Positions 2,591 through 64,000 of a stretch of DNA of 64,000 nucleotides are shown in pieces. The translations under genes were made by a program, and so were the position numbers. How positions within the stretch are numbered: position 1 is the first letter of the stretch; the number at the start of each line of letters is the position of its first letter. Source of the stretch: Escherichia phage PNJ1902. The stretch is from the sequence record OK254197.1; one strand, given 5' to 3'. A model generated the notes under the pieces. It saw only the letters and a list, made by a program, of their open reading frames with translations. It made no database searches and had not been told where the DNA came from.

Positions 2591-3807
2591 TGGGTTTTAA
2601 AAGCTGGATTACTGAAAAGCTAAATCCGGGTCAACGTATTATAAGAGACATGGAACCAGTTAGTCATCGCACTAACCGTAAGCCTTTTACCACTGGACAA
2701 GCCTACAGTAAAATTGAGATTCTCAATAGAACTGCTAATATGGTTATAGATAGTGCGGCGGAGTGTTCTTATACTGTCGGAGATAAATATAATATTGTCA
2801 CGTATGCTAACGGCATCAAGACAAAGACTCTAGACACTCTCTTAAATGTACGACCTAATCCATTCATGGATATAAGCACATTCCGTAGACTTGTAGTCAC
2901 TGACCTACTTTTTGAAGGTTGTGCATACATCTATTGGGATGGCACAGCACTTTATCATGTCCCGGCTGCTCTTATGCAGGTCGAGGCAGATGCCAATAAG
3001 TTTATCAAAAAATTTATATTTAATAATCAGATAAACTATCGCGTAGATGAGATTATCTTTATAAAGGATAACAGTTACGTGTGTGGCACAAACTCTCAAA
3101 TTTCTGGACAATCTCGTGTTGCCACTGTTATTGATTCTCTTGAGAAGCGTTCCAAGATGCTTAACTTTAAAGAGAAGTTCCTAGATAACGGAACCGTGAT
3201 TGGTCTTATTCTTGAGACGGATGAAATCCTGAACAAGAAATTGCGTGAGCGTAAACAAGAAGAATTACAACTAGATTATAATCCTAGTACTGGTCAGTCA
3301 TCTGTCCTGATTCTAGATGGTGGTATGAAAGCTAAACCGTACTCCCAAATATCCTCTTTTAAAGATCTAGACTTTAAGGAAGACATTGAAGGATTTAATA
3401 AATCCATCTGTCTAGCCTTTGGTGTTCCGCAAGTGTTACTTGATGGCGGTAATAATGCGAACATTCGACCAAATATCGAACTGTTCTATTACATGACTAT
3501 CATCCCTATGCTGAACAAGCTGACTAGTTCTCTTACTTTCTTTTTTGGTTATAAGATTACTCCTAATACTAAGGAAGTAGCTGCACTAACACCAGATAAA
3601 GAAGCTGAGGCTAAACATTTAACCTCATTGGTTAATAATGGTATTATGACTGGTAACGAAGCTCGTTTAGAGCTGAACCTTGAACCTTTAGATGATGAGC
3701 AGATGAATAAAATTCGTATTCCTGCCAACGTTGCTGGTTCTGCAACAGGGGTATCTGGTCAAGAAGGTGGCAGACCTCAAGGTTCCACCGAGGGAGATAA
3801 AGAATGA
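2590..3807 (+). CDS. Portal protein (pb7-like)
   Basis: 405 aa ORF between terminase and head genes; size matches my recollection of the T5 portal; overlaps downstream gene start (ATGA). Confidence 0.8.
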   Translation: MGFKSWITEKLNPGQRIIRDMEPVSHRTNRKPFTTGQAYSKIEILNRTANMVIDSAAECSYTVGDKYNIVTYANGIKTKTLDTLLNVRPNPFMDISTFRRLVVTDLLFEGCAYIYWDGTALYHVPAALMQVEADANKFIKKFIFNNQINYRVDEIIFIKDNSYVCGTNSQISGQSRVATVIDSLEKRSKMLNFKEKFLDNGTVIGLILETDEILNKKLRERKQEELQLDYNPSTGQSSVLILDGGMKAKPYSQISSFKDLDFKEDIEGFNKSICLAFGVPQVLLDGGNNANIRPNIELFYYMTIIPMLNKLTSSLTFFFGYKITPNTKEVAALTPDKEAEAKHLTSLVNNGIMTGNEARLELNLEPLDDEQMNKIRIPANVAGSATGVSGQEGGRPQGSTEGDKE

Positions 3808-4289
3808 TTGATTATAATGGTCTAAAGACCATTTTTGGTGAAAAACTACCAGAATCTCATATCTTCTTTGCTACGGTTGCTGCGCATAAATATGTTCCTA
3901 GCTATGCTTTTCTGCGTAGAGAACTAGGACTTTCATCTGCGCATACTAACCGTAAAGTATGGAAGAAATTTGTAGAGGCTTATGGTAAAGCAGTTCCACC
4001 GGCTCCACCATTAACTCTTTCTAAAGATTTAACTGCTAGCATGTCAGTTGAAGAGGGAGCAGCATTAACACTTTCTGTTACTGCAACTGGTGGTACTGGT
4101 CCATATACTTATGCATGGACTAAAGATGGTTCTCCTATTCCTGGTGCTTCAGGAGCTACCTATACTAAGCCTGCAGCAGCTACAGAGGATTCTGGAGCCT
4201 ATAAAGTAACTGTAACAGATAGTAAGCAAGTAAGCAAGGACTCTGCTACATGTGCTGTGACAGTTAATCCTACTGTTCCTGGAGGCTAA
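3804..4289 (+). CDS. Head decoration protein with C-terminal Ig-like domain (pb10-like)
   Basis: 161 aa; C-terminal GGTGPYTYAWTKDGSPIPGASGATYT...DSGAYKVTVTD is an Ig-like (I-set) signature; sits between portal and protease. Confidence 0.7.
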   Translation: MIDYNGLKTIFGEKLPESHIFFATVAAHKYVPSYAFLRRELGLSSAHTNRKVWKKFVEAYGKAVPPAPPLTLSKDLTASMSVEEGAALTLSVTATGGTGPYTYAWTKDGSPIPGASGATYTKPAAATEDSGAYKVTVTDSKQVSKDSATCAVTVNPTVPGG

Positions 4290-4292
4290 TAA

Positions 4293-4925
4293 ATGACACA
4301 AGCTGCTATTGACTATAACAAGTTAAAATCAGCACCCGTTCATTTAGATGCTTATATTAAATCTATTGATAGCGAATCCAAAGAGGGCGTTGTAAAAATC
4401 CGTGGATTCGCTAATACAATTAGTAAAGATCGCGCTGGTGATGTAATTCCTGCTTCTGCGTGGAAAACATCTAATGCACTTACTAACTATATGAAAAACC
4501 CGATTATTCTTTTCGGACACGATCATCGTCGTCCAATCGGTAAGTGTATTGATCTTAACCCTACTGAAATGGGTCTCGAAATCGAATGCGAGATCTATGA
4601 AAGTTCTGACCCGGCTATCTTTTCACTAATTAAAAACGGTGTACTGAAAACTTTTAGTATCGGATTCCGCTGCCTAGATGCAGAGTGGGATGAAGCTACT
4701 GATATATTTATTATTAAAGATTTAGAACTATACGAAGTTTCGGTAGTTTCTGTACCTTGTAATCAGGACTCAACGTTCAATCTCGCTAAGAGCATGAATG
4801 GTCATGATTATACTGAATGGCGTAAATCTTTTACTGCAATAAGTTCTAAAGCTGTCCCAGCTCAAGAACGTAATCTTTCTGAACTAGAAAAACTTGCGAT
4901 AGCTTTAGGCTACGTTAAAGAATAA
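4293..4925 (+). CDS. Prohead maturation protease (pb11-like, HK97-type)
   Basis: 210 aa ORF immediately upstream of major capsid gene; position and size as in T5. Confidence 0.75.
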   Translation: MTQAAIDYNKLKSAPVHLDAYIKSIDSESKEGVVKIRGFANTISKDRAGDVIPASAWKTSNALTNYMKNPIILFGHDHRRPIGKCIDLNPTEMGLEIECEIYESSDPAIFSLIKNGVLKTFSIGFRCLDAEWDEATDIFIIKDLELYEVSVVSVPCNQDSTFNLAKSMNGHDYTEWRKSFTAISSKAVPAQERNLSELEKLAIALGYVKE

Positions 4926-4942: not shown

Positions 4943-6319
4943 ATGACTATTGATATTAATAAGCTGAAAGAAGAACTTGGTCTGGGTGATCTGGCTAAAT
5001 CTCTGGAAGGTCTGACCGCTGCTCAGAAAGCTGCTGAAGCTGAACGTATGCGTAAAGAGCAGGAAGAAAAAGAACTGGCTCGTATGAATGATCTGGTTTC
5101 TAAAGCAGTTGGCGAAGATCGTCAGAAACTGGAACAAGCTCTGGAACTGGTTAAGTCCCTTGATGAAAAATCTAAAAAGAGTGCAGAACTGTTTGCACAG
5201 ACTGTAGAAAAACAGCAGGAAACTATTGTTGGTCTTCAGGACGAAATCAAATCTCTGCTAGCAGCTCGTGAAGGACGTTCCTTCGTTGGTGATAGTGTAG
5301 CTAAAGCACTGTATGGTACTCAAGAAAACTTTGAAGACGAAGTGGAGAAACTGGTTCTTCTGTCCTACGTGATGGAAAAAGGTGTATTTGATACTGAACA
5401 TGGCCAGAGACACCTGAAAGCTGTAAACCAGTCCTCTTCAGTAGAAGTTTCTAGTGAAAGCTATGAAACTATTTTCTCTCAGCGTATTATTCGTGATCTG
5501 CAGAAAGAACTGGTAGTTGGTGCACTGTTTGAAGAATTGCCGATGTCCAGCAAAATTCTTACTATGCTGGTTGAACCAGATGCTGGTAAAGCTACTTGGG
5601 TAGATGCTGCTACTTACGGTACTGATGCTACTACTGGTGATGAAGTTAAAGGCGCTCTTAAAGAGATCAGCTTCAAAACTTACAAACTGGCTGCTAAATC
5701 CTTTATCACTGATGAAACTGAAGAAGATGCAATCTTCTCTCTGCTGCCTCTGCTGCGTAAACGTCTGATTGAAGCACATGCTGTTTCTATCGAAGAAGCG
5801 TTTATGACTGGTGATGGTTCCGGTAAGCCGAAAGGCCTGTTGACTCTTGCTAGCGAAGATGGTGCTAAAGTTACTACTGAAGCTAAAGCTGATGGTTCTG
5901 TTCTGGTAACTGCTAAAACTATCTCTAAACTGCGTCGTAAACTGGGCCGTCATGGTCTGAAACTGAGCAAACTGGTACTGATTGTATCTATGGATGCTTA
6001 TTACGATCTGCTGGAAGATGAAGAATGGCAGGATGTTGCACAGGTTGGTAACGATGCTGTTAAACTGCAAGGTCAGGTTGGTCGTATTTATGGTCTGCCG
6101 GTTGTAGTTTCTGAATACTTCCCGGCTAAAGCAGTAGATAAAGAGTTCGCAGTTATTGTTTATAAAGATAACTTCGTAATGCCGCGTCAGCGTGCTGTTA
6201 CTGTTGAACGTGAGCGCCAAGCTGGTAAACAGCGTGACGCGTACTACGTCACTCAGCGTGTTAACCTGCAACGTTACTTTGCAAATGGCGTTGTATCCGG
6301 TGCTTACGCTGCATCTTAA
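4943..6319 (+). CDS. Major capsid protein precursor (pb8-like, HK97 fold with N-terminal scaffolding domain)
   Basis: 458 aa; N-terminal coiled-coil-like delta domain MTIDINKLKEELGLGDLAKSLEGL... recognised as T5 major head protein; codon usage is host-optimal (CTG/CGT/GGT rich). Confidence 0.95.
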   Translation: MTIDINKLKEELGLGDLAKSLEGLTAAQKAAEAERMRKEQEEKELARMNDLVSKAVGEDRQKLEQALELVKSLDEKSKKSAELFAQTVEKQQETIVGLQDEIKSLLAAREGRSFVGDSVAKALYGTQENFEDEVEKLVLLSYVMEKGVFDTEHGQRHLKAVNQSSSVEVSSESYETIFSQRIIRDLQKELVVGALFEELPMSSKILTMLVEPDAGKATWVDAATYGTDATTGDEVKGALKEISFKTYKLAAKSFITDETEEDAIFSLLPLLRKRLIEAHAVSIEEAFMTGDGSGKPKGLLTLASEDGAKVTTEAKADGSVLVTAKTISKLRRKLGRHGLKLSKLVLIVSMDAYYDLLEDEEWQDVAQVGNDAVKLQGQVGRIYGLPVVVSEYFPAKAVDKEFAVIVYKDNFVMPRQRAVTVERERQAGKQRDAYYVTQRVNLQRYFANGVVSGAYAAS

Positions 6320-40792: not shown

Positions 40793-41203
40793 TTACTTAG
40801 TGATAGCTCGGATTGCTTCTGCCAGATGAGCGGCTGCTTTACCGGTCAGTTTGTCGATAATTGCATCATCCAGAAAATCTGGTGCTAGGCCAGCATCAGA
40901 GAATGCTGAACGAAGATCGGCATGAGCTTGGGCTTTGGAAGTACGAGAACCACCAGAAGCTTTTTCTCCAGTAGATGCGCTAGATTTAGAAGCAGAGCCA
41001 GCAGCTTTCTTGATATACAAACCTGCTTTAGTCAGCTTCATACGAAAACCGTTCGGAGTTACACCATTTTCCTGGGCAATTTCGCTAACAATTTCCATGC
41101 TAACACCCGGACGTTCATCCTCTGGGAATTGCTCCATACGAGCAACGTATTCGGAAGACATTTTTTCGAACAGTTCATCAGTCCACTGAGTTGGAGTAGT
41201 CAT
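40793..41203 (-). CDS. Hypothetical protein with one HTH-like module and low-complexity Ser/Ala-rich region
   Basis: 136 aa; ...EIVSEIAQENGVTPNGFRMKLTKAGL... resembles the modules in the 37300-38067 protein. Confidence 0.5.
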   Translation of the reverse strand: MTTPTQWTDELFEKMSSEYVARMEQFPEDERPGVSMEIVSEIAQENGVTPNGFRMKLTKAGLYIKKAAGSASKSSASTGEKASGGSRTSKAQAHADLRSAFSDAGLAPDFLDDAIIDKLTGKAAAHLAEAIRAITK

Positions 41204-41260
41204 ATTTTATATTTCCTTAATTAAGAATTAAACAGAATAGTTCTTTCAAACTATGAGAAT

Positions 41261-41289
41261 ATTATATCAAGAATTATAGGATTAAGCAA
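41261..41289 (-). promoter_or_regulatory. Early promoter
   Basis: TTGCTT - 17 bp - TATAAT. Confidence 0.6.
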
Positions 41290-41309
41290 CTGAAATTTTT
41301 CGGTAACTG

Positions 41310-41564
41310 CTACACATCTAGCTCAACAATCTCCCAATCATCCGCTAGAGCTTCTTCTAGAGTAAGGTTTACTTGACGGATAAGTGGGGATTCCATACCG
41401 TTCTCCCACACATGTTCAGTCACTGTACCCTGCTCTACGTTAAATTCTAAAACCACTGTAAAGTGTTTATTATTTTCCCAGCAATCTCGCTGGAGATATT
41501 TTACGTCCCCAGCTTTCAGCAAATCTGTTAGCTTACTCACGGCGTTTTCCTTTTTCTTTATCAA
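41310..41564 (-). CDS. Hypothetical protein
   Basis: 84 aa ORF. Confidence 0.45.
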   Translation of the reverse strand: MIKKKENAVSKLTDLLKAGDVKYLQRDCWENNKHFTVVLEFNVEQGTVTEHVWENGMESPLIRQVNLTLEEALADDWEIVELDV

Positions 41565-42237
41565 ATTTCAAGGCAGCCTTAACAGCTTCATTAATTAATG
41601 AAATTACTTCTTCACGAGTCCACTTGTACCCTAGAGATTTTACGTCAACCCCTAATTTTTCCAGATGTTTAACAGAAGCCAGCTCGTAATTCATATAATG
41701 GACGTTCTGTTGTTTGCCTTCTGATAGAAGCCATACACGATAGCAACCAACAGGATTATCCATTGCTTTTTTGATTTCACCAATACACTGGTATCCAGGA
41801 ACCCAAACAAGCTCACCAACTGCAAATTCTTCTGCTACAGCATCATCAGGAATAATTGGAGGATTCAATGGATCTACAATATCGTTCAAACGAAGTAGAG
41901 CACCATATCGTTCCAGAACAGATTTAACCATTGCTACAGAGCGGTAATTACGATCGGCAATTTCTTCGAAAGAATCACCAGATAAATACTGCTCAATAAC
42001 GTTAGCTAACTCAATGCCTTCAATGAGTGTGCCACGTTTCTTTTTCTTCATTTCGGCAACTTGAATCTGGCGGTCTTGCCATTCTTCAATCATCCTTTCC
42101 ATAGTTGGATTGGATGATACGCCGAGCATTTCACATGCTGCTTTCTTAGTACCACCGTTCTCCAGATGCTCTATAACCTTTTTAAAGACTTCATCCGGGA
42201 TTTCATGGATATGTTTCTTTCTACGAGAACCAGCCAT
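41533..42237 (-). CDS. Putative HTH DNA-binding protein (possible regulator)
   Basis: 234 aa; N-terminal HTH-like GGTKKAACEMLGVSSNPTMERMI; immediately downstream of a PN25-like promoter. Confidence 0.55.
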   Translation of the reverse strand: MAGSRRKKHIHEIPDEVFKKVIEHLENGGTKKAACEMLGVSSNPTMERMIEEWQDRQIQVAEMKKKKRGTLIEGIELANVIEQYLSGDSFEEIADRNYRSVAMVKSVLERYGALLRLNDIVDPLNPPIIPDDAVAEEFAVGELVWVPGYQCIGEIKKAMDNPVGCYRVWLLSEGKQQNVHYMNYELASVKHLEKLGVDVKSLGYKWTREEVISLINEAVKAALKFDKEKGKRRE

Positions 42238-59016: not shown

Positions 59017-59045
59017 TTGCTAAATGCTTCAAATTCTCGTATAAT
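59017..59045 (+). promoter_or_regulatory. Early promoter
   Basis: TTGCTA - 17 bp - TATAAT then ATACTTCATAAATTGA. Confidence 0.65.
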
Positions 59046-61125: not shown

Positions 61126-61178
61126 TAGACCAAATTTAAACAAATTCAAATCTCAAACTTCATATAAGGAAGCAAATA

Positions 61179-61817
61179 ATGACTACTCGTATTTCTAAAA
61201 CTCGTGCTCTGGCAACTATCAAATCTCTGGAAGCTAAAATCCGTAAAGCTACTGAACAGCAGCTTCTGATCGCTGTTGGTGAAGGTAAGGATAAAAACCA
61301 GGTTGTAGTTGGCGCTGCAATCGAAGTAGCCGATCTGTCTACTCGTATTAAGACTGATTTCCAGTCTCTGCTGGATATGATGTCTAAGCGTGATAGTATC
61401 AAATCTGCTCTGATTAAGAGCAATGCAGAAACAATCGTTGAGATTGGTTCTCGTAAGATGACTGTTGCGGAAGCAATTGAAGCTAAGCGTTCTATGGAGC
61501 TTAAAGCTCAGCTGCTGGCTAACATGCGTAAGCAGTTCCATGCCGCTACGGTTAAGTTTAATACGCAGAAAGCACAGTTTGACGCTAAATATGAGCGTTT
61601 GCAGGATAGCATGGCTACCCGCGATAAGAAAACTTCCGAAGATGAAGTTAAAATGCAGCTCAACCTGCTGGAACTCAAGAATACTCCATTCTTGATTGAT
61701 CCGCTGGAACTGGAGAAGCTGATTAAGCAGCATGACGAGGAATACCAGGACTTTGCAACAAATGTTGACTTTGTTCTGTCCGAGTCTAACGCCTCTACCT
61801 TCATTGAAGTAGAGTAA
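61179..61817 (+). CDS. Hypothetical protein (highly expressed early protein)
   Basis: 212 aa; host-optimal codon usage; RBS AAGGAAG. Confidence 0.6.
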   Translation: MTTRISKTRALATIKSLEAKIRKATEQQLLIAVGEGKDKNQVVVGAAIEVADLSTRIKTDFQSLLDMMSKRDSIKSALIKSNAETIVEIGSRKMTVAEAIEAKRSMELKAQLLANMRKQFHAATVKFNTQKAQFDAKYERLQDSMATRDKKTSEDEVKMQLNLLELKNTPFLIDPLELEKLIKQHDEEYQDFATNVDFVLSESNASTFIEVE

Positions 61818-62200
61818 TAATTTAAAAGCTAGTAAATCGGTAGACGAAAGCCTAAGCATCTTACCTCGCAGCAGCGGTTGAAATACGAGGTTAAATAAGA
61901 CCGCTGACCATACTATAAAGTATAATCTATTGGAGATTATGTTTATTACACCAGCCTTTTAAGCTGACACGTAAGAACAAAGCGTCGTTGATATTACCGA
62001 CACAACTTCAAAGATCAACATTTAAGTATGAAAGCTGAAAAGTTTAAAGAACTCAAACTTCTAAACTTCTAAAGCTAAAAGATGCAAAGTATTCGTTGAT
62101 GATTCAAACCCTAGATCAAAGGTACATGGCTCATAAGATATGGCCTGTGGCGCCTCTAGGCTGTTTATCGGTTTACTAGTTTCACAATTTAAAAATGTAT

Positions 62201-62229
62201 TTGCTAATCTACTAAATTATATGTATAAT
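62201..62229 (+). promoter_or_regulatory. Early promoter
   Basis: TTGCTA - 17 bp - TATAAT. Confidence 0.65.
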
Positions 62230-62259
62230 ATATTTTTAAATTGATGAAACGAGGCTATT

Positions 62260-62577
62260 ATGACTTTTCATATTTTGATTGATGATGTGCGTAATCTTCA
62301 CGGAATGGACATTATCATTCGAACCCCAGAAGCCGCTGTAGAGTTTCTGAATAAAACTGATACCACAGGCCATTTTGTTTATATGGATAATGACTTGGCT
62401 GTAGATGGTATGGAAGGTTATCAAATTCTTCGTTTACTCTTAGAATTTGGGCAGAGACCAAAGAAAGTGGTACTAGTAACCTCGAACCCAGTAGCTAAGC
62501 AAAATATGCGTAATGATTTGCTTGACTTAGGGTATAAAGAAAATCCCAATCGTGTTGAATATGATTGGCAGGAGTAA
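62260..62577 (+). CDS. Hypothetical protein
   Basis: 105 aa ORF with RBS; overlaps downstream gene. Confidence 0.5.
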   Translation: MTFHILIDDVRNLHGMDIIIRTPEAAVEFLNKTDTTGHFVYMDNDLAVDGMEGYQILRLLLEFGQRPKKVVLVTSNPVAKQNMRNDLLDLGYKENPNRVEYDWQE

Positions 62578-63100: not shown

Positions 63101-63271
63101 ATGAAATCAGTTGTAATTATTGGTGTTAACACTCGCGGTATTCGTACTACGAAAACTGTTAAAACATCTAACGTGGCTGAAATTACTACTAACCCTAAAA
63201 AGTTTGATTTCGCCAAAGTCTCGGCAGTTATGACAGAACAATCTTTTAACCAAGCGTTAGGAATGAAATAA
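63101..63271 (+). CDS. Small hypothetical protein (56 aa, below ORF-track threshold)
   Basis: ATG preceded by GAGAGGAAG RBS and a dedicated promoter; MKSVVIIGVNTRGIRTTK...; stop overlaps next ATG (TAATG). Confidence 0.35.
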   Translation: MKSVVIIGVNTRGIRTTKTVKTSNVAEITTNPKKFDFAKVSAVMTEQSFNQALGMK

Positions 63272-63714
63272 TGGAAGAGAATATTTTAGATGTTTTGCGT
63301 AGAGCTTTGCAGGATTCTAAGTTTAATGGTTCTGATAAAGAAGTCGCTAAAAGCTACCAGACCATAATCGGGGATCTTCAGCGTATTGATAAAGATTTCA
63401 TCACTTCTGAACAATTTGTGTCTTATCTCAAAGCTCAACTAAAAAGCATTAACCAGATGAAAGCTAAACTTCATGGTCAAGATCTTGATAGTTATAGCTT
63501 GCAGTCTGCTCAGTATGAGTACATTCTAAATAAATGGTTGCAGGAGTATCTGCCTCCTCAGTTATCTGATACTGAGATTCGTAAATACTTTGCAGAATTA
63601 GTTAAGCTAAACCCTGGAATTACAAAGGGTATGCTGATGAAAGCGATTAAGGAAGAATTTCCTGGGCGTTATGATGGCGGTACTGCTGCTCAGATTGCTG
63701 GCGAATTTAATTAA
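63271..63714 (+). CDS. GatB/YqeY-domain-like protein
   Basis: 147 aa; C-terminal ...PGITKGMLMKAIKEEFPGRYDGGTAAQIAGE resembles the YqeY family. Confidence 0.45.
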   Translation: MEENILDVLRRALQDSKFNGSDKEVAKSYQTIIGDLQRIDKDFITSEQFVSYLKAQLKSINQMKAKLHGQDLDSYSLQSAQYEYILNKWLQEYLPPQLSDTEIRKYFAELVKLNPGITKGMLMKAIKEEFPGRYDGGTAAQIAGEFN

Positions 63715-63722
63715 AAATTTAT

Positions 63723-63751
63723 TTGCTAAATGCCTTTAAATTCTGTATAAT
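63723..63751 (+). promoter_or_regulatory. Early promoter firing into ORF-free region at window end
   Basis: TTGCTA - 17 bp - TATAAT then ATATTCATAAATTAGGG; almost identical to the promoters at 59017 and 60874. Confidence 0.65.
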
Positions 63752-64000
63752 ATATTCATAAATTAGGGAACAGCGAGCCGATTACGCTGAGTGCAGAATC
63801 CCAACCGGAGCGCATTGAATAGAGTCGGTGGGTTAGTTGTAAAACTAGTACACAGGGGGCGGCAATCCCGGTTAGTGGCTAGAACGTGTAAAATGAGGCG
63901 TCTGAAACCTCTCCCCTAAACTCTTCTCTAATTTATAAATAGTGGGGTGTGGAAATCACTTATGTAGTAACACTGCCGTCCTAGTATAATTGGTATTATC

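Follow-up and report, generated by a model that had tools for sequence, protein, structure and literature searches.

Positions 63752-64000 close a 64,000-nt stretch of the genome of Escherichia phage PNJ1902 (OK254197.1), hereafter the window, and lie directly downstream of a strong promoter. The phage is T5-like, its best matches being Tequintavirus genomes at 99-100% identity, and the sequence beyond the window edge was taken from Salmonella phage SP33 (locus L001), whose identity over 63400-64000 is 99.3% (L001 coordinates become window coordinates on adding 59399). Across this junction, a stretch of ~940 nt free of open reading frames (ORFs) extends from the stop codon of a YqeY-like gene (63271-63714, ending at 63714; YqeY match of 25.4 bits, just below the cut-off of 27) to the next coding sequence (CDS), which encodes an SPFH/band-7 protein (start at L001 5259; Band_7, 63.9 bits). 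Between the promoter and this CDS lie a conserved non-coding block, a tRNA-like element and a tRNA-Arg(UCU) called by ARAGORN at L001 5150-5224. The same interval of phage T5 (NC_005859) is annotated as a misc_RNA named rnaX (locus T5s08, 40848-41566; "RNAX, stable RNA with unknown functions"). Judged by sequence and gene order, the end of the window is the first ~240 bases, or the promoter-proximal quarter to third, of the rnaX orthologue of a Tequintavirus.

In T5, promoter P 16-17 is followed by rnaX, directly by tRNA-Arg, and then by a lipoprotein gene and a terminator. The window and its continuation are syntenic with T5 rnaX, with the YqeY-like gene upstream and tRNA-Arg(UCU) and the SPFH/band-7 gene downstream. 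The promoter, both arms of a promoter-proximal stem (P1) and positions 63935-64000 align to T5 save for a few substitutions, and the RNAX body (L001 4576-5145) is 93.3% identical to T5 rnaX over 100% of its 570 nt. The two loci are thus alike in position, early promoter, 5′ stem arms, the motif GTGGGGTG and the tRNA-like element. They differ in their 5′ part, where a 175-nt domain of the window, which we call D1, corresponds in T5 to a bare 10-bp stem and its loop of 8 nt, in an extra 82-nt insertion with a flanking direct repeat near the 3′ end of T5 rnaX, and in the acceptor-like stem of the tRNA-like element, where T5 has an A-U pair in place of a U.U mismatch in the window. The 82-nt insertion (T5, L003, minus strand, ~4985-5070) is shared with a metagenomic locus, L092, and its direct repeat reads AGTCACCTTGAC(T/A)TAAACTGGAA.

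The RNAX body is present in 521 phage records, all of them T5-like. The rnaX label is used only in T5 and DT571/2, and the other records are unannotated or bear 'hypothetical protein' or odd tRNA calls; automated CDSs have been set on both strands inside RNAX, and the tRNA-like element is labelled variously tRNA-OTHER, tRNA-Ser, tRNA-Sec or trna-Undet. The T5 record also lists seven further stable RNAs in its tRNA region. Within the reach of the patterns used, RNAX was not found outside T5-like phages in the GenBank phage collection, IMG/VR, JGI metagenomes or GTDB genomes. A metagenome scan with a 17-mer from hairpin P2 of D1 returned 103 stretches, among which 7 true T5-like sequences and 2 chance matches passed an RNAX-motif filter, adding no new diversity, and a pattern for the 3′ core matched only T5-like contigs in IMG/VR and gave 7 chance matches in GTDB genomes. 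Rfam searches of the window end, its extension and six diverse relatives at permissive E-values gave tRNA matches only, apart from a minus-strand match to Hrs13 (19 bits, E = 0.05, against a gathering score of 52) that was judged to be due to chance. No description of RNAX was found in the literature on RNAX, T5 stable RNAs and T5 transcriptomes.

The initial annotation had described the promoter as strong and as a near copy of those at 59017 and 60874, and this is borne out. Its T5 homologue is promoter P 16-17; the promoters at 59017, 60874, 62201, 63041 and 63723 share an A-rich block upstream and a ATATTCATAAATT start region; and ten matches to the pattern TTGCT-N16-18-GTATAATA were counted in the window, where chance predicts 0.01 (Table 1). 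The + strand promoters near the window end also have in common an upstream AAAAAT block and the start sequence TTCATAAATT. The spacing predicts a transcription start near 63758. An ATG lies 31-41 nt past the −10 element of each of the other four + strand promoters, and the promoter at 63723 lacks one there. In the extension, no + strand terminator was found before L001 6230-6260, which follows the SPFH gene and is the counterpart of an 'efficient bidirectional terminator' annotated in T5. An intrinsic terminator soon after the structured region, as would mark an independent small RNA, is absent; P1 is AU-rich, with no run of U after it. Because no terminator separates them, RNAX, tRNA-Arg and the SPFH gene are probably parts of one primary transcript.

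The strongest structural signal in RNAX is a helix in which a leader strand within the window is matched by a trailer strand located immediately downstream of the tRNA-like element. Across 26 distinct sequences the 12 pairs of the helix are formed in 100% of cells, five of them are changed on both sides (AU/CG, CG/GC, AU/GC, GC/AU and UA/CG), and sliding the partner by 1-3 columns reduces pairing to 25-42%. The element bracketed by this helix matches the Rfam tRNA family (RF00005) with 35.5 bits against a gathering score of 29, over L001 4576-4647 (window 63975 to window-equivalent 64046). Its acceptor-like stem is accompanied by a D loop containing GG and by a T arm of canonical form; its anticodon arm is degenerate, and neither a complete cloverleaf, with an anticodon stem of 5 bp and a loop of 7 nt, nor a consistent anticodon was found, non-standard pairs being marked in the Rfam alignment. 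In the extension, ARAGORN makes no call on the window-type element, and the calls it makes in relatives are Ser(act), at position 36, or SeC(tca). Four pairs of the acceptor-like stem are changed on both sides, and pair 5:68, the U.U mismatch of the window type and A-U in T5, is U-A in L037. The 3′ flank reads AAGA, with no encoded CCA. P1, the leader/trailer helix, the acceptor stem and the T arm all appear in the minimum-energy fold of the first 312 nt.

No T-loop (GTTCRA) had been recognised in the window by the initial annotation, and rightly so, because the GTTCGAA T-loop of the tRNA-like element falls ~50-60 nt past the window end. ARAGORN accordingly finds no tRNA or transfer-messenger RNA in the window, Rfam reports nothing there at its gathering score, and the element, cut by the edge, is detected by neither program; on the extended sequence, the tRNA-Arg is called by the former and the tRNA-like element by the latter. 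The possibility had also been raised that a CDS begins just beyond the window, and the next one in fact lies ~900 nt downstream of the promoter.

Other 'tRNA-like stable RNAs' are listed in the T5 record (RNA1, RNA2 and RNA3), which are likewise tRNA-like, and the other T5 small RNAs have no sequence similarity to the element in the window beyond the T loop. Unlike an ordinary tRNA, this element is not free-standing and is held within the covarying leader/trailer helix. A possible GGTGT/ACACT pairing upstream of it shows no covariation and is broken in L006 and L164. The idea that the YqeY-like protein is a partner of the tRNA-like element is weakened by Klebsiella phages that keep RNAX without an adjacent YqeY gene and by Salmonella phage FGS029, in which the YqeY-like gene is deleted.

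Table 1. Features at the rnaX locus and related promoters (window coordinates; structural features are predicted).
Feature	Position	Strand	Remarks
T5-type early sigma-70 promoter	63723-63751	+	−35 TTGCTA 63723-63728; −10 TATAAT 63746-63751; spacer 17
Sites matching TTGCT-N16-18-GTATAATA (ten)	30275(-), 34856(-), 42268(-), 51164, 58222, 59017, 60874, 62201, 63041, 63723		
rnaX transcript, 5′ portion	63758-64000	+	whole RNA ~790 nt, ending ~550 nt past the window at the tRNA-Arg 5′ end
Accessory 5′ domain D1	63760-63934	+	175 nt; closed by stem P1
Stem P1, 10 bp	63760-63769 with 63925-63934	+	AAATTAGGGA with TCTCTAATTT; recovered by the minimum-energy fold
Hairpin P2	63771-63789	+	CAGCG 63771-63775, loop AGCCGATTA 63776-63784, CGCTG 63785-63789
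Variable hairpin V1, type A	63791-63815	+	unrelated hairpins in other lineages
42-aa GTG ORF	63791-63919	+	rejected as a gene; 'hypothetical protein' in PQ488695
Proposed long-range helix	63830-63832 with 63913-63915	+	GGG with CCC; encloses V2 and P5; modest support
Hairpin in variable segment V2 (63835-63889)	63834-63847	+	TAGTT-GTAA-AACTA; recovered by the centroid fold
Hairpin P5	63895-63911	+	GAGG, loop CGTCTGAAA, CCTC
Invariant motif	63942-63949	+	GTGGGGTG; linker between D1 and leader helix; same in 26/26 distinct sequences
Leader helix, 5′ strand	63955-63968	+	ATCACTTATGTAGT (also given as AUCACUUAUGUAGU)
tRNA-like element, first 26 of 72 nt	63975-64000	+	acceptor 5′ strand GCCGTCC 63975-63981, then D-arm region
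Trailer partner of leader strand	window-equivalent 64050-64063		ACTGGATAACTGAT (also given as ACUGGAUAACUGAU); outside the window, just 3′ of the tRNA-like element

Downstream of the tRNA-like element, the 3′ part of RNAX contains a 170-nt stretch for which RNAalifold predicts a consensus of 39 pairs closed by GUGG/CCAC. Compensatory changes are seen at 8 of the 39 pairs, a number reached in 0 of 500 shuffles and compared with at most 2 in slid controls, the structure having been predicted on the same alignment that was used for the covariation test. The full-length alignment reveals further hairpin-for-hairpin compensation with invariant loops AGUCAUGA, AUAACCAC and AGUCACCUUGACUUAAACUGGAA, and a terminal hairpin closes RNAX just before tRNA-Arg. 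Unrelated ORFs are inserted exactly between this 3′ hairpin and tRNA-Arg in several loci (L164 ~3040-3570, L168 ~2630-3160, L006 2526-3035 and L030 ~3945-4455); one of them resembles a T5orf172/GIY-YIG-type protein, as read by eye from its translation, and the other is a 170-aa protein. The 3′ hairpin of RNAX appears to mark a boundary for recombination or insertion.

At the other end of the RNA, D1 lies inside the window. In T5 the 5′ hairpin reads AAATTAGAGA-gtaattct-TCTCTAATTT, followed by the motif GTGGGGTG, and the corresponding arms in the window enclose 155 more bases. The arms of P1 pair in every variant, over 7-12 bp; they are fully compensated as AGATG/CATCT in L042, and the stem is longer on both sides in a Yersinia phage (L164). 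The distance from the −10 element to the motif, taken from about 60 loci, falls into classes of 43-44 nt (T5 type), 190 nt (window type), 205 nt (HdH2 type), 222-224 nt (Epseptimavirus), 370 nt (L030, phage S124), 400-405 nt (with a second domain) and 494 nt (with an HNH homing-endonuclease ORF in place of D1).

Within D1, the P2 stem is invariant in 19/19 sequences, and only the first base of its loop varies, from A to G in two Klebsiella phages. The P2 loop sequence CCGATT (63778-63783) may form a pseudoknot with AGTCGG (63823-63828), a tentative model in which 99% of cells are paired and the one variable position changes from G.U to A-U in Klebsiella phages. A rival long-range helix, AGAGT/ACTCT, was rejected: its single variable position has three variants, each of which disrupts the helix, while two of them are compatible with the pseudoknot. 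The V1 position is occupied by type B hairpins in HdH2, L030 and Klebsiella phages and by type C in Epseptimavirus, where the stem passes from TCCT/AGGA to TCAC/GTGA to TCCCGG/CCGGGA, and changes to the type A hairpin in L021 and L037 preserve pairing. The loop of the V2 hairpin conforms to GNRA, being GTAA in the window and GGAA in L017. P5 is changed to GTGG...CCAC in Klebsiella phage L008, a compensatory change, and its position is taken in Epseptimavirus and L051 by another hairpin, CGGGA-GCTG-TCCCG. In the proposed long-range helix, 10 sequences have G-C and 9 have A-U at pair 63831:63914 (alignment columns 92:217), and none breaks it.

D1 is found in Tequintavirus, Epseptimavirus, and Klebsiella and Yersinia phages, and because of this spread it is probably ancestral; we read it as a domain that T5 lost, and not as a mobile insertion. 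No paralogue of D1 or of other RNAX modules was found among the other stable RNAs of T5 or elsewhere in the window, and a search of 5,426 E. coli genomes gave no match that would point to a host origin of D1. In some loci an HNH ORF directly follows the promoter and the whole of D1 is gone (L025/L059, ~2990-3470; L165, 1517-1995; L167, 1517-1999; L169, 1517-1999), and RNAX picks up again at the GTGGGGTG motif. Phage FGS029 (L009, 1440-1500) carries a natural deletion that fuses the 3′ end of an endolysin gene to the middle of D1. Two genes (DUF7616 and YqeY-like) and the promoter of rnaX are lost, as are, from D1 itself, the 5′ arm of P1 and hairpin P2, so that RNAX in this phage would depend on read-through transcription. 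The modules of RNAX form mosaics: in a metagenome contig (L113), D1 is of the window type and the tRNA-like element is the long-armed one seen in Klebsiella phages, and the otherwise near-identical Klebsiella phages L008 and L051 have swapped types of P5 hairpin. Recombination seems to exchange single hairpins at conserved junctions.

We propose, with a probability of about 0.8, that the locus is an rnaX orthologue encoding a non-coding, highly structured RNA of ~790 nt that acts as RNA and carries an extra 5′ domain. The strong early promoter reads into an ORF-free block conserved across the family, in which D1 comes first, followed by the leader strand, paired with the trailer to bracket the tRNA-like element, and then by the covarying body. 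The primary transcript would comprise RNAX, tRNA-Arg and the SPFH/band-7 mRNA, and cleavage by RNase P at tRNA-Arg could set the 3′ end of RNAX, which is exactly where the T5 annotation ends rnaX. RNAX may then accumulate as a stable RNA in early infection and serve as a scaffold, decoy or catalyst, in a role that would be neither coding nor purely that of a cis-acting leader.

Several observations weigh against this proposal. The 'stable RNA' label is a GenBank annotation only, and the covariation is drawn from few recombining lineages, so that independent events are fewer than cell counts suggest. The pair 63831:63914 is the only covarying one in the conserved core of D1, where there is too little variation for a strong test. 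Single-sequence folding energies are no better than those of shuffled sequences on either strand, with z = +0.34 for D1 and z = +1.65 for the first 312 nt, and stability alone therefore lends no support. D1 is absent from T5, several phages have a homing-endonuclease ORF in its place, and one carries a truncated form; it is therefore not essential, and we read it as a peripheral, dispensable domain. Some Epseptimaviruses have a plain hairpin in place of the tRNA-like interior; because a 5-bp stem is retained there, helix architecture, more than tRNA identity, is what the comparison indicates to be conserved. Finally, Obesumbacterium phage Ob_P apparently lacks the RNAX body: in this phage (L165, 2000-2105) the tRNA-like element is represented by its 5′ half, which continues at the T arm into the 3′ end of an apparently genuine tRNA (...GGCGGTCTACCA); this suggests that T-loop to T-loop recombination deleted RNAX.

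The initial annotation had offered two readings of the region, a different RNA or the long leader of a gene beyond the window. The RNA gene is favoured, and the leader less so, because T5 annotates a misc_RNA, the CDS is ~900 nt away and the helices covary; the leader survives in part, as an RNA that continues without a terminator into tRNA-Arg and the SPFH gene, and not as the sole reading. In its strict form, this alternative holds that the ~900 nt are a long cis-acting 5′ leader that regulates or stabilises tRNA-Arg and the downstream mRNA and has no RNA role of its own. Neither a terminator nor a second promoter was found in the extension from 63751 to the SPFH gene, and the order of promoter, RNAX, tRNA-Arg and SPFH gene is kept in T5 and relatives, both in favour of this reading. 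However, processing of the intervening tRNA should split the RNA from the CDS, the T5 annotators labelled the product a stable RNA, and the about 40 covarying or conserved helices go well beyond what known leaders need. Because unrelated ORFs have entered between the 3′ hairpin and tRNA-Arg in several phages with RNAX undisturbed, and because Klebsiella phages retain RNAX though their downstream neighbours differ, we consider a purely cis-acting role unlikely.

It could also be argued that the block consists of tRNA genes in decay and scars left by homing endonucleases, with the tRNA-like element as a pseudogene and the rest as neutral remnants. The element does pass the Rfam tRNA model with a degenerate anticodon arm and inconsistent ARAGORN calls (Ser, SeC or nothing), homing-endonuclease ORFs do invade the locus, and the T-loop to T-loop event suggested for Ob_P would fit such a history. 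Yet nothing else in the block besides tRNA-Arg is tRNA-like at E <= 1, motifs unrelated to tRNA are invariant across genera, compensatory changes preserve helices as neutral decay would not, and the block is kept in about 520 genomes, all of which makes simple decay very improbable.

A still poorer account is that D1 is a small mobile insertion, of the type of miniature inverted-repeat transposable elements, lodged in the rnaX hairpin and playing no functional part in the RNA. Its presence/absence polymorphism is bounded exactly by the 10-bp inverted repeat and its GC content exceeds that of neighbouring genes, as such an insertion might predict, but it occurs as a single copy per genome in 522/522 phage records, E. 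coli genomes carry none, and neither the rest of the window nor the T5 tRNA region contains a paralogue. Moreover, the inverted repeat exists without the insert and has compensatory variants of its own, D1 is spread over the genera and phage groups named above, and the T5 loop GTAATTCT resembles the joined ends of D1, suggesting a deletion in T5.

That the region encodes a small protein is scarcely credible: as the initial annotation held, no convincing ORF follows the promoter, and the sole candidate of at least 20 aa downstream of 63751, the 42-aa GTG ORF annotated in some GenBank records, has no Shine-Dalgarno sequence as read from the sequence and no Pfam match, loses its start in HdH2-type relatives, where that segment is replaced, differs in sequence in Epseptimavirus, is absent from T5, and varies in step with RNA pairing, not codon structure.

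Elsewhere near the window end, the 56-aa gene just upstream of the YqeY-like gene (63101-63271) matches Pfam DUF7616 over its full length with 113 bits; a conserved small protein of unknown function adjoins the RNA locus. Another region of ~440 nt, 61818-62259, contains no convincing + strand ORF; it lies between a 212-aa ORF (61179-61817) and the gene at 62260, ends with the promoter at 62201, and has a similar unannotated gap as its counterpart in T5. One GenBank record annotates a minus-strand ORF of 237 aa at 61146-61859; it overlaps the gene on the + strand and appears to be spurious.

Phage RNAs of unknown function that accompany tRNA genes have precedents. Species 1 and 2 of the phage T4 tRNA cluster are stable RNAs of ~140 nt, co-transcribed and co-processed with phage tRNAs, and are much smaller than RNAX. 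Closer in scale are GOLLD and ROOL, large and elaborately structured RNAs of phages and prophages that are often located near tRNA genes and whose function is unknown; in GOLLD the 3′ region is conserved and the 5′ region variable, and tRNAs are in some cases located inside the RNA (PMC12286853). RNAX is likewise phage-encoded, tRNA-adjacent, large and multi-helical, with a variable 5′ part and an embedded tRNA-like element. It differs in being confined to virulent T5-like phages of enterobacteria, and the GOLLD and ROOL covariance models gave no match at E <= 1 to the window, its extension or six diverse relatives and none at the gathering score across the whole window, nor were shared motifs found. 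By analogy, RNAX resembles GOLLD and ROOL in kind and is not a member of either family.

The annotation of rnaX in T5 is about two decades old. What is new is D1, the pairing of leader and trailer around the tRNA-like element, and evidence for a large, modular, constrained RNA that is absent from Rfam. Covarying helices, a bracketed tRNA-like branch, hairpins exchanged between lineages and an optional 175-nt 5′ domain together show constraint at the RNA level and an unusual, modular construction. For annotation pipelines, the practical consequence is that the interval should be marked as non-coding RNA and its ORF calls dropped, most GenBank records of this RNA, which has no Rfam family, being unannotated or bearing spurious proteins or odd tRNAs.

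T5 is a classic model phage, and among its most strongly promoted early transcripts is an RNA of 0.7-1.1 kb whose role is unknown. We speculate, at rather less than even odds, that RNAX represents a new class among the large, ornate RNAs of phages, one that would match GOLLD and ROOL in function, be associated with tRNA genes and work as an RNA machine, scaffold or decoy, and in which the D1 hairpins and the tRNA-like branch are lineage-specific specificity modules. If so, these modules might act, for example, as decoys against host defences that target tRNAs or as docking sites for host factors. GOLLD and ROOL have recently been shown to form RNA-only cages, with their function still open, and an analogous RNA in an easily manipulated family of phages of E. 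coli K-12 and Salmonella would, if our proposal is true, make the function of ornate RNAs testable.

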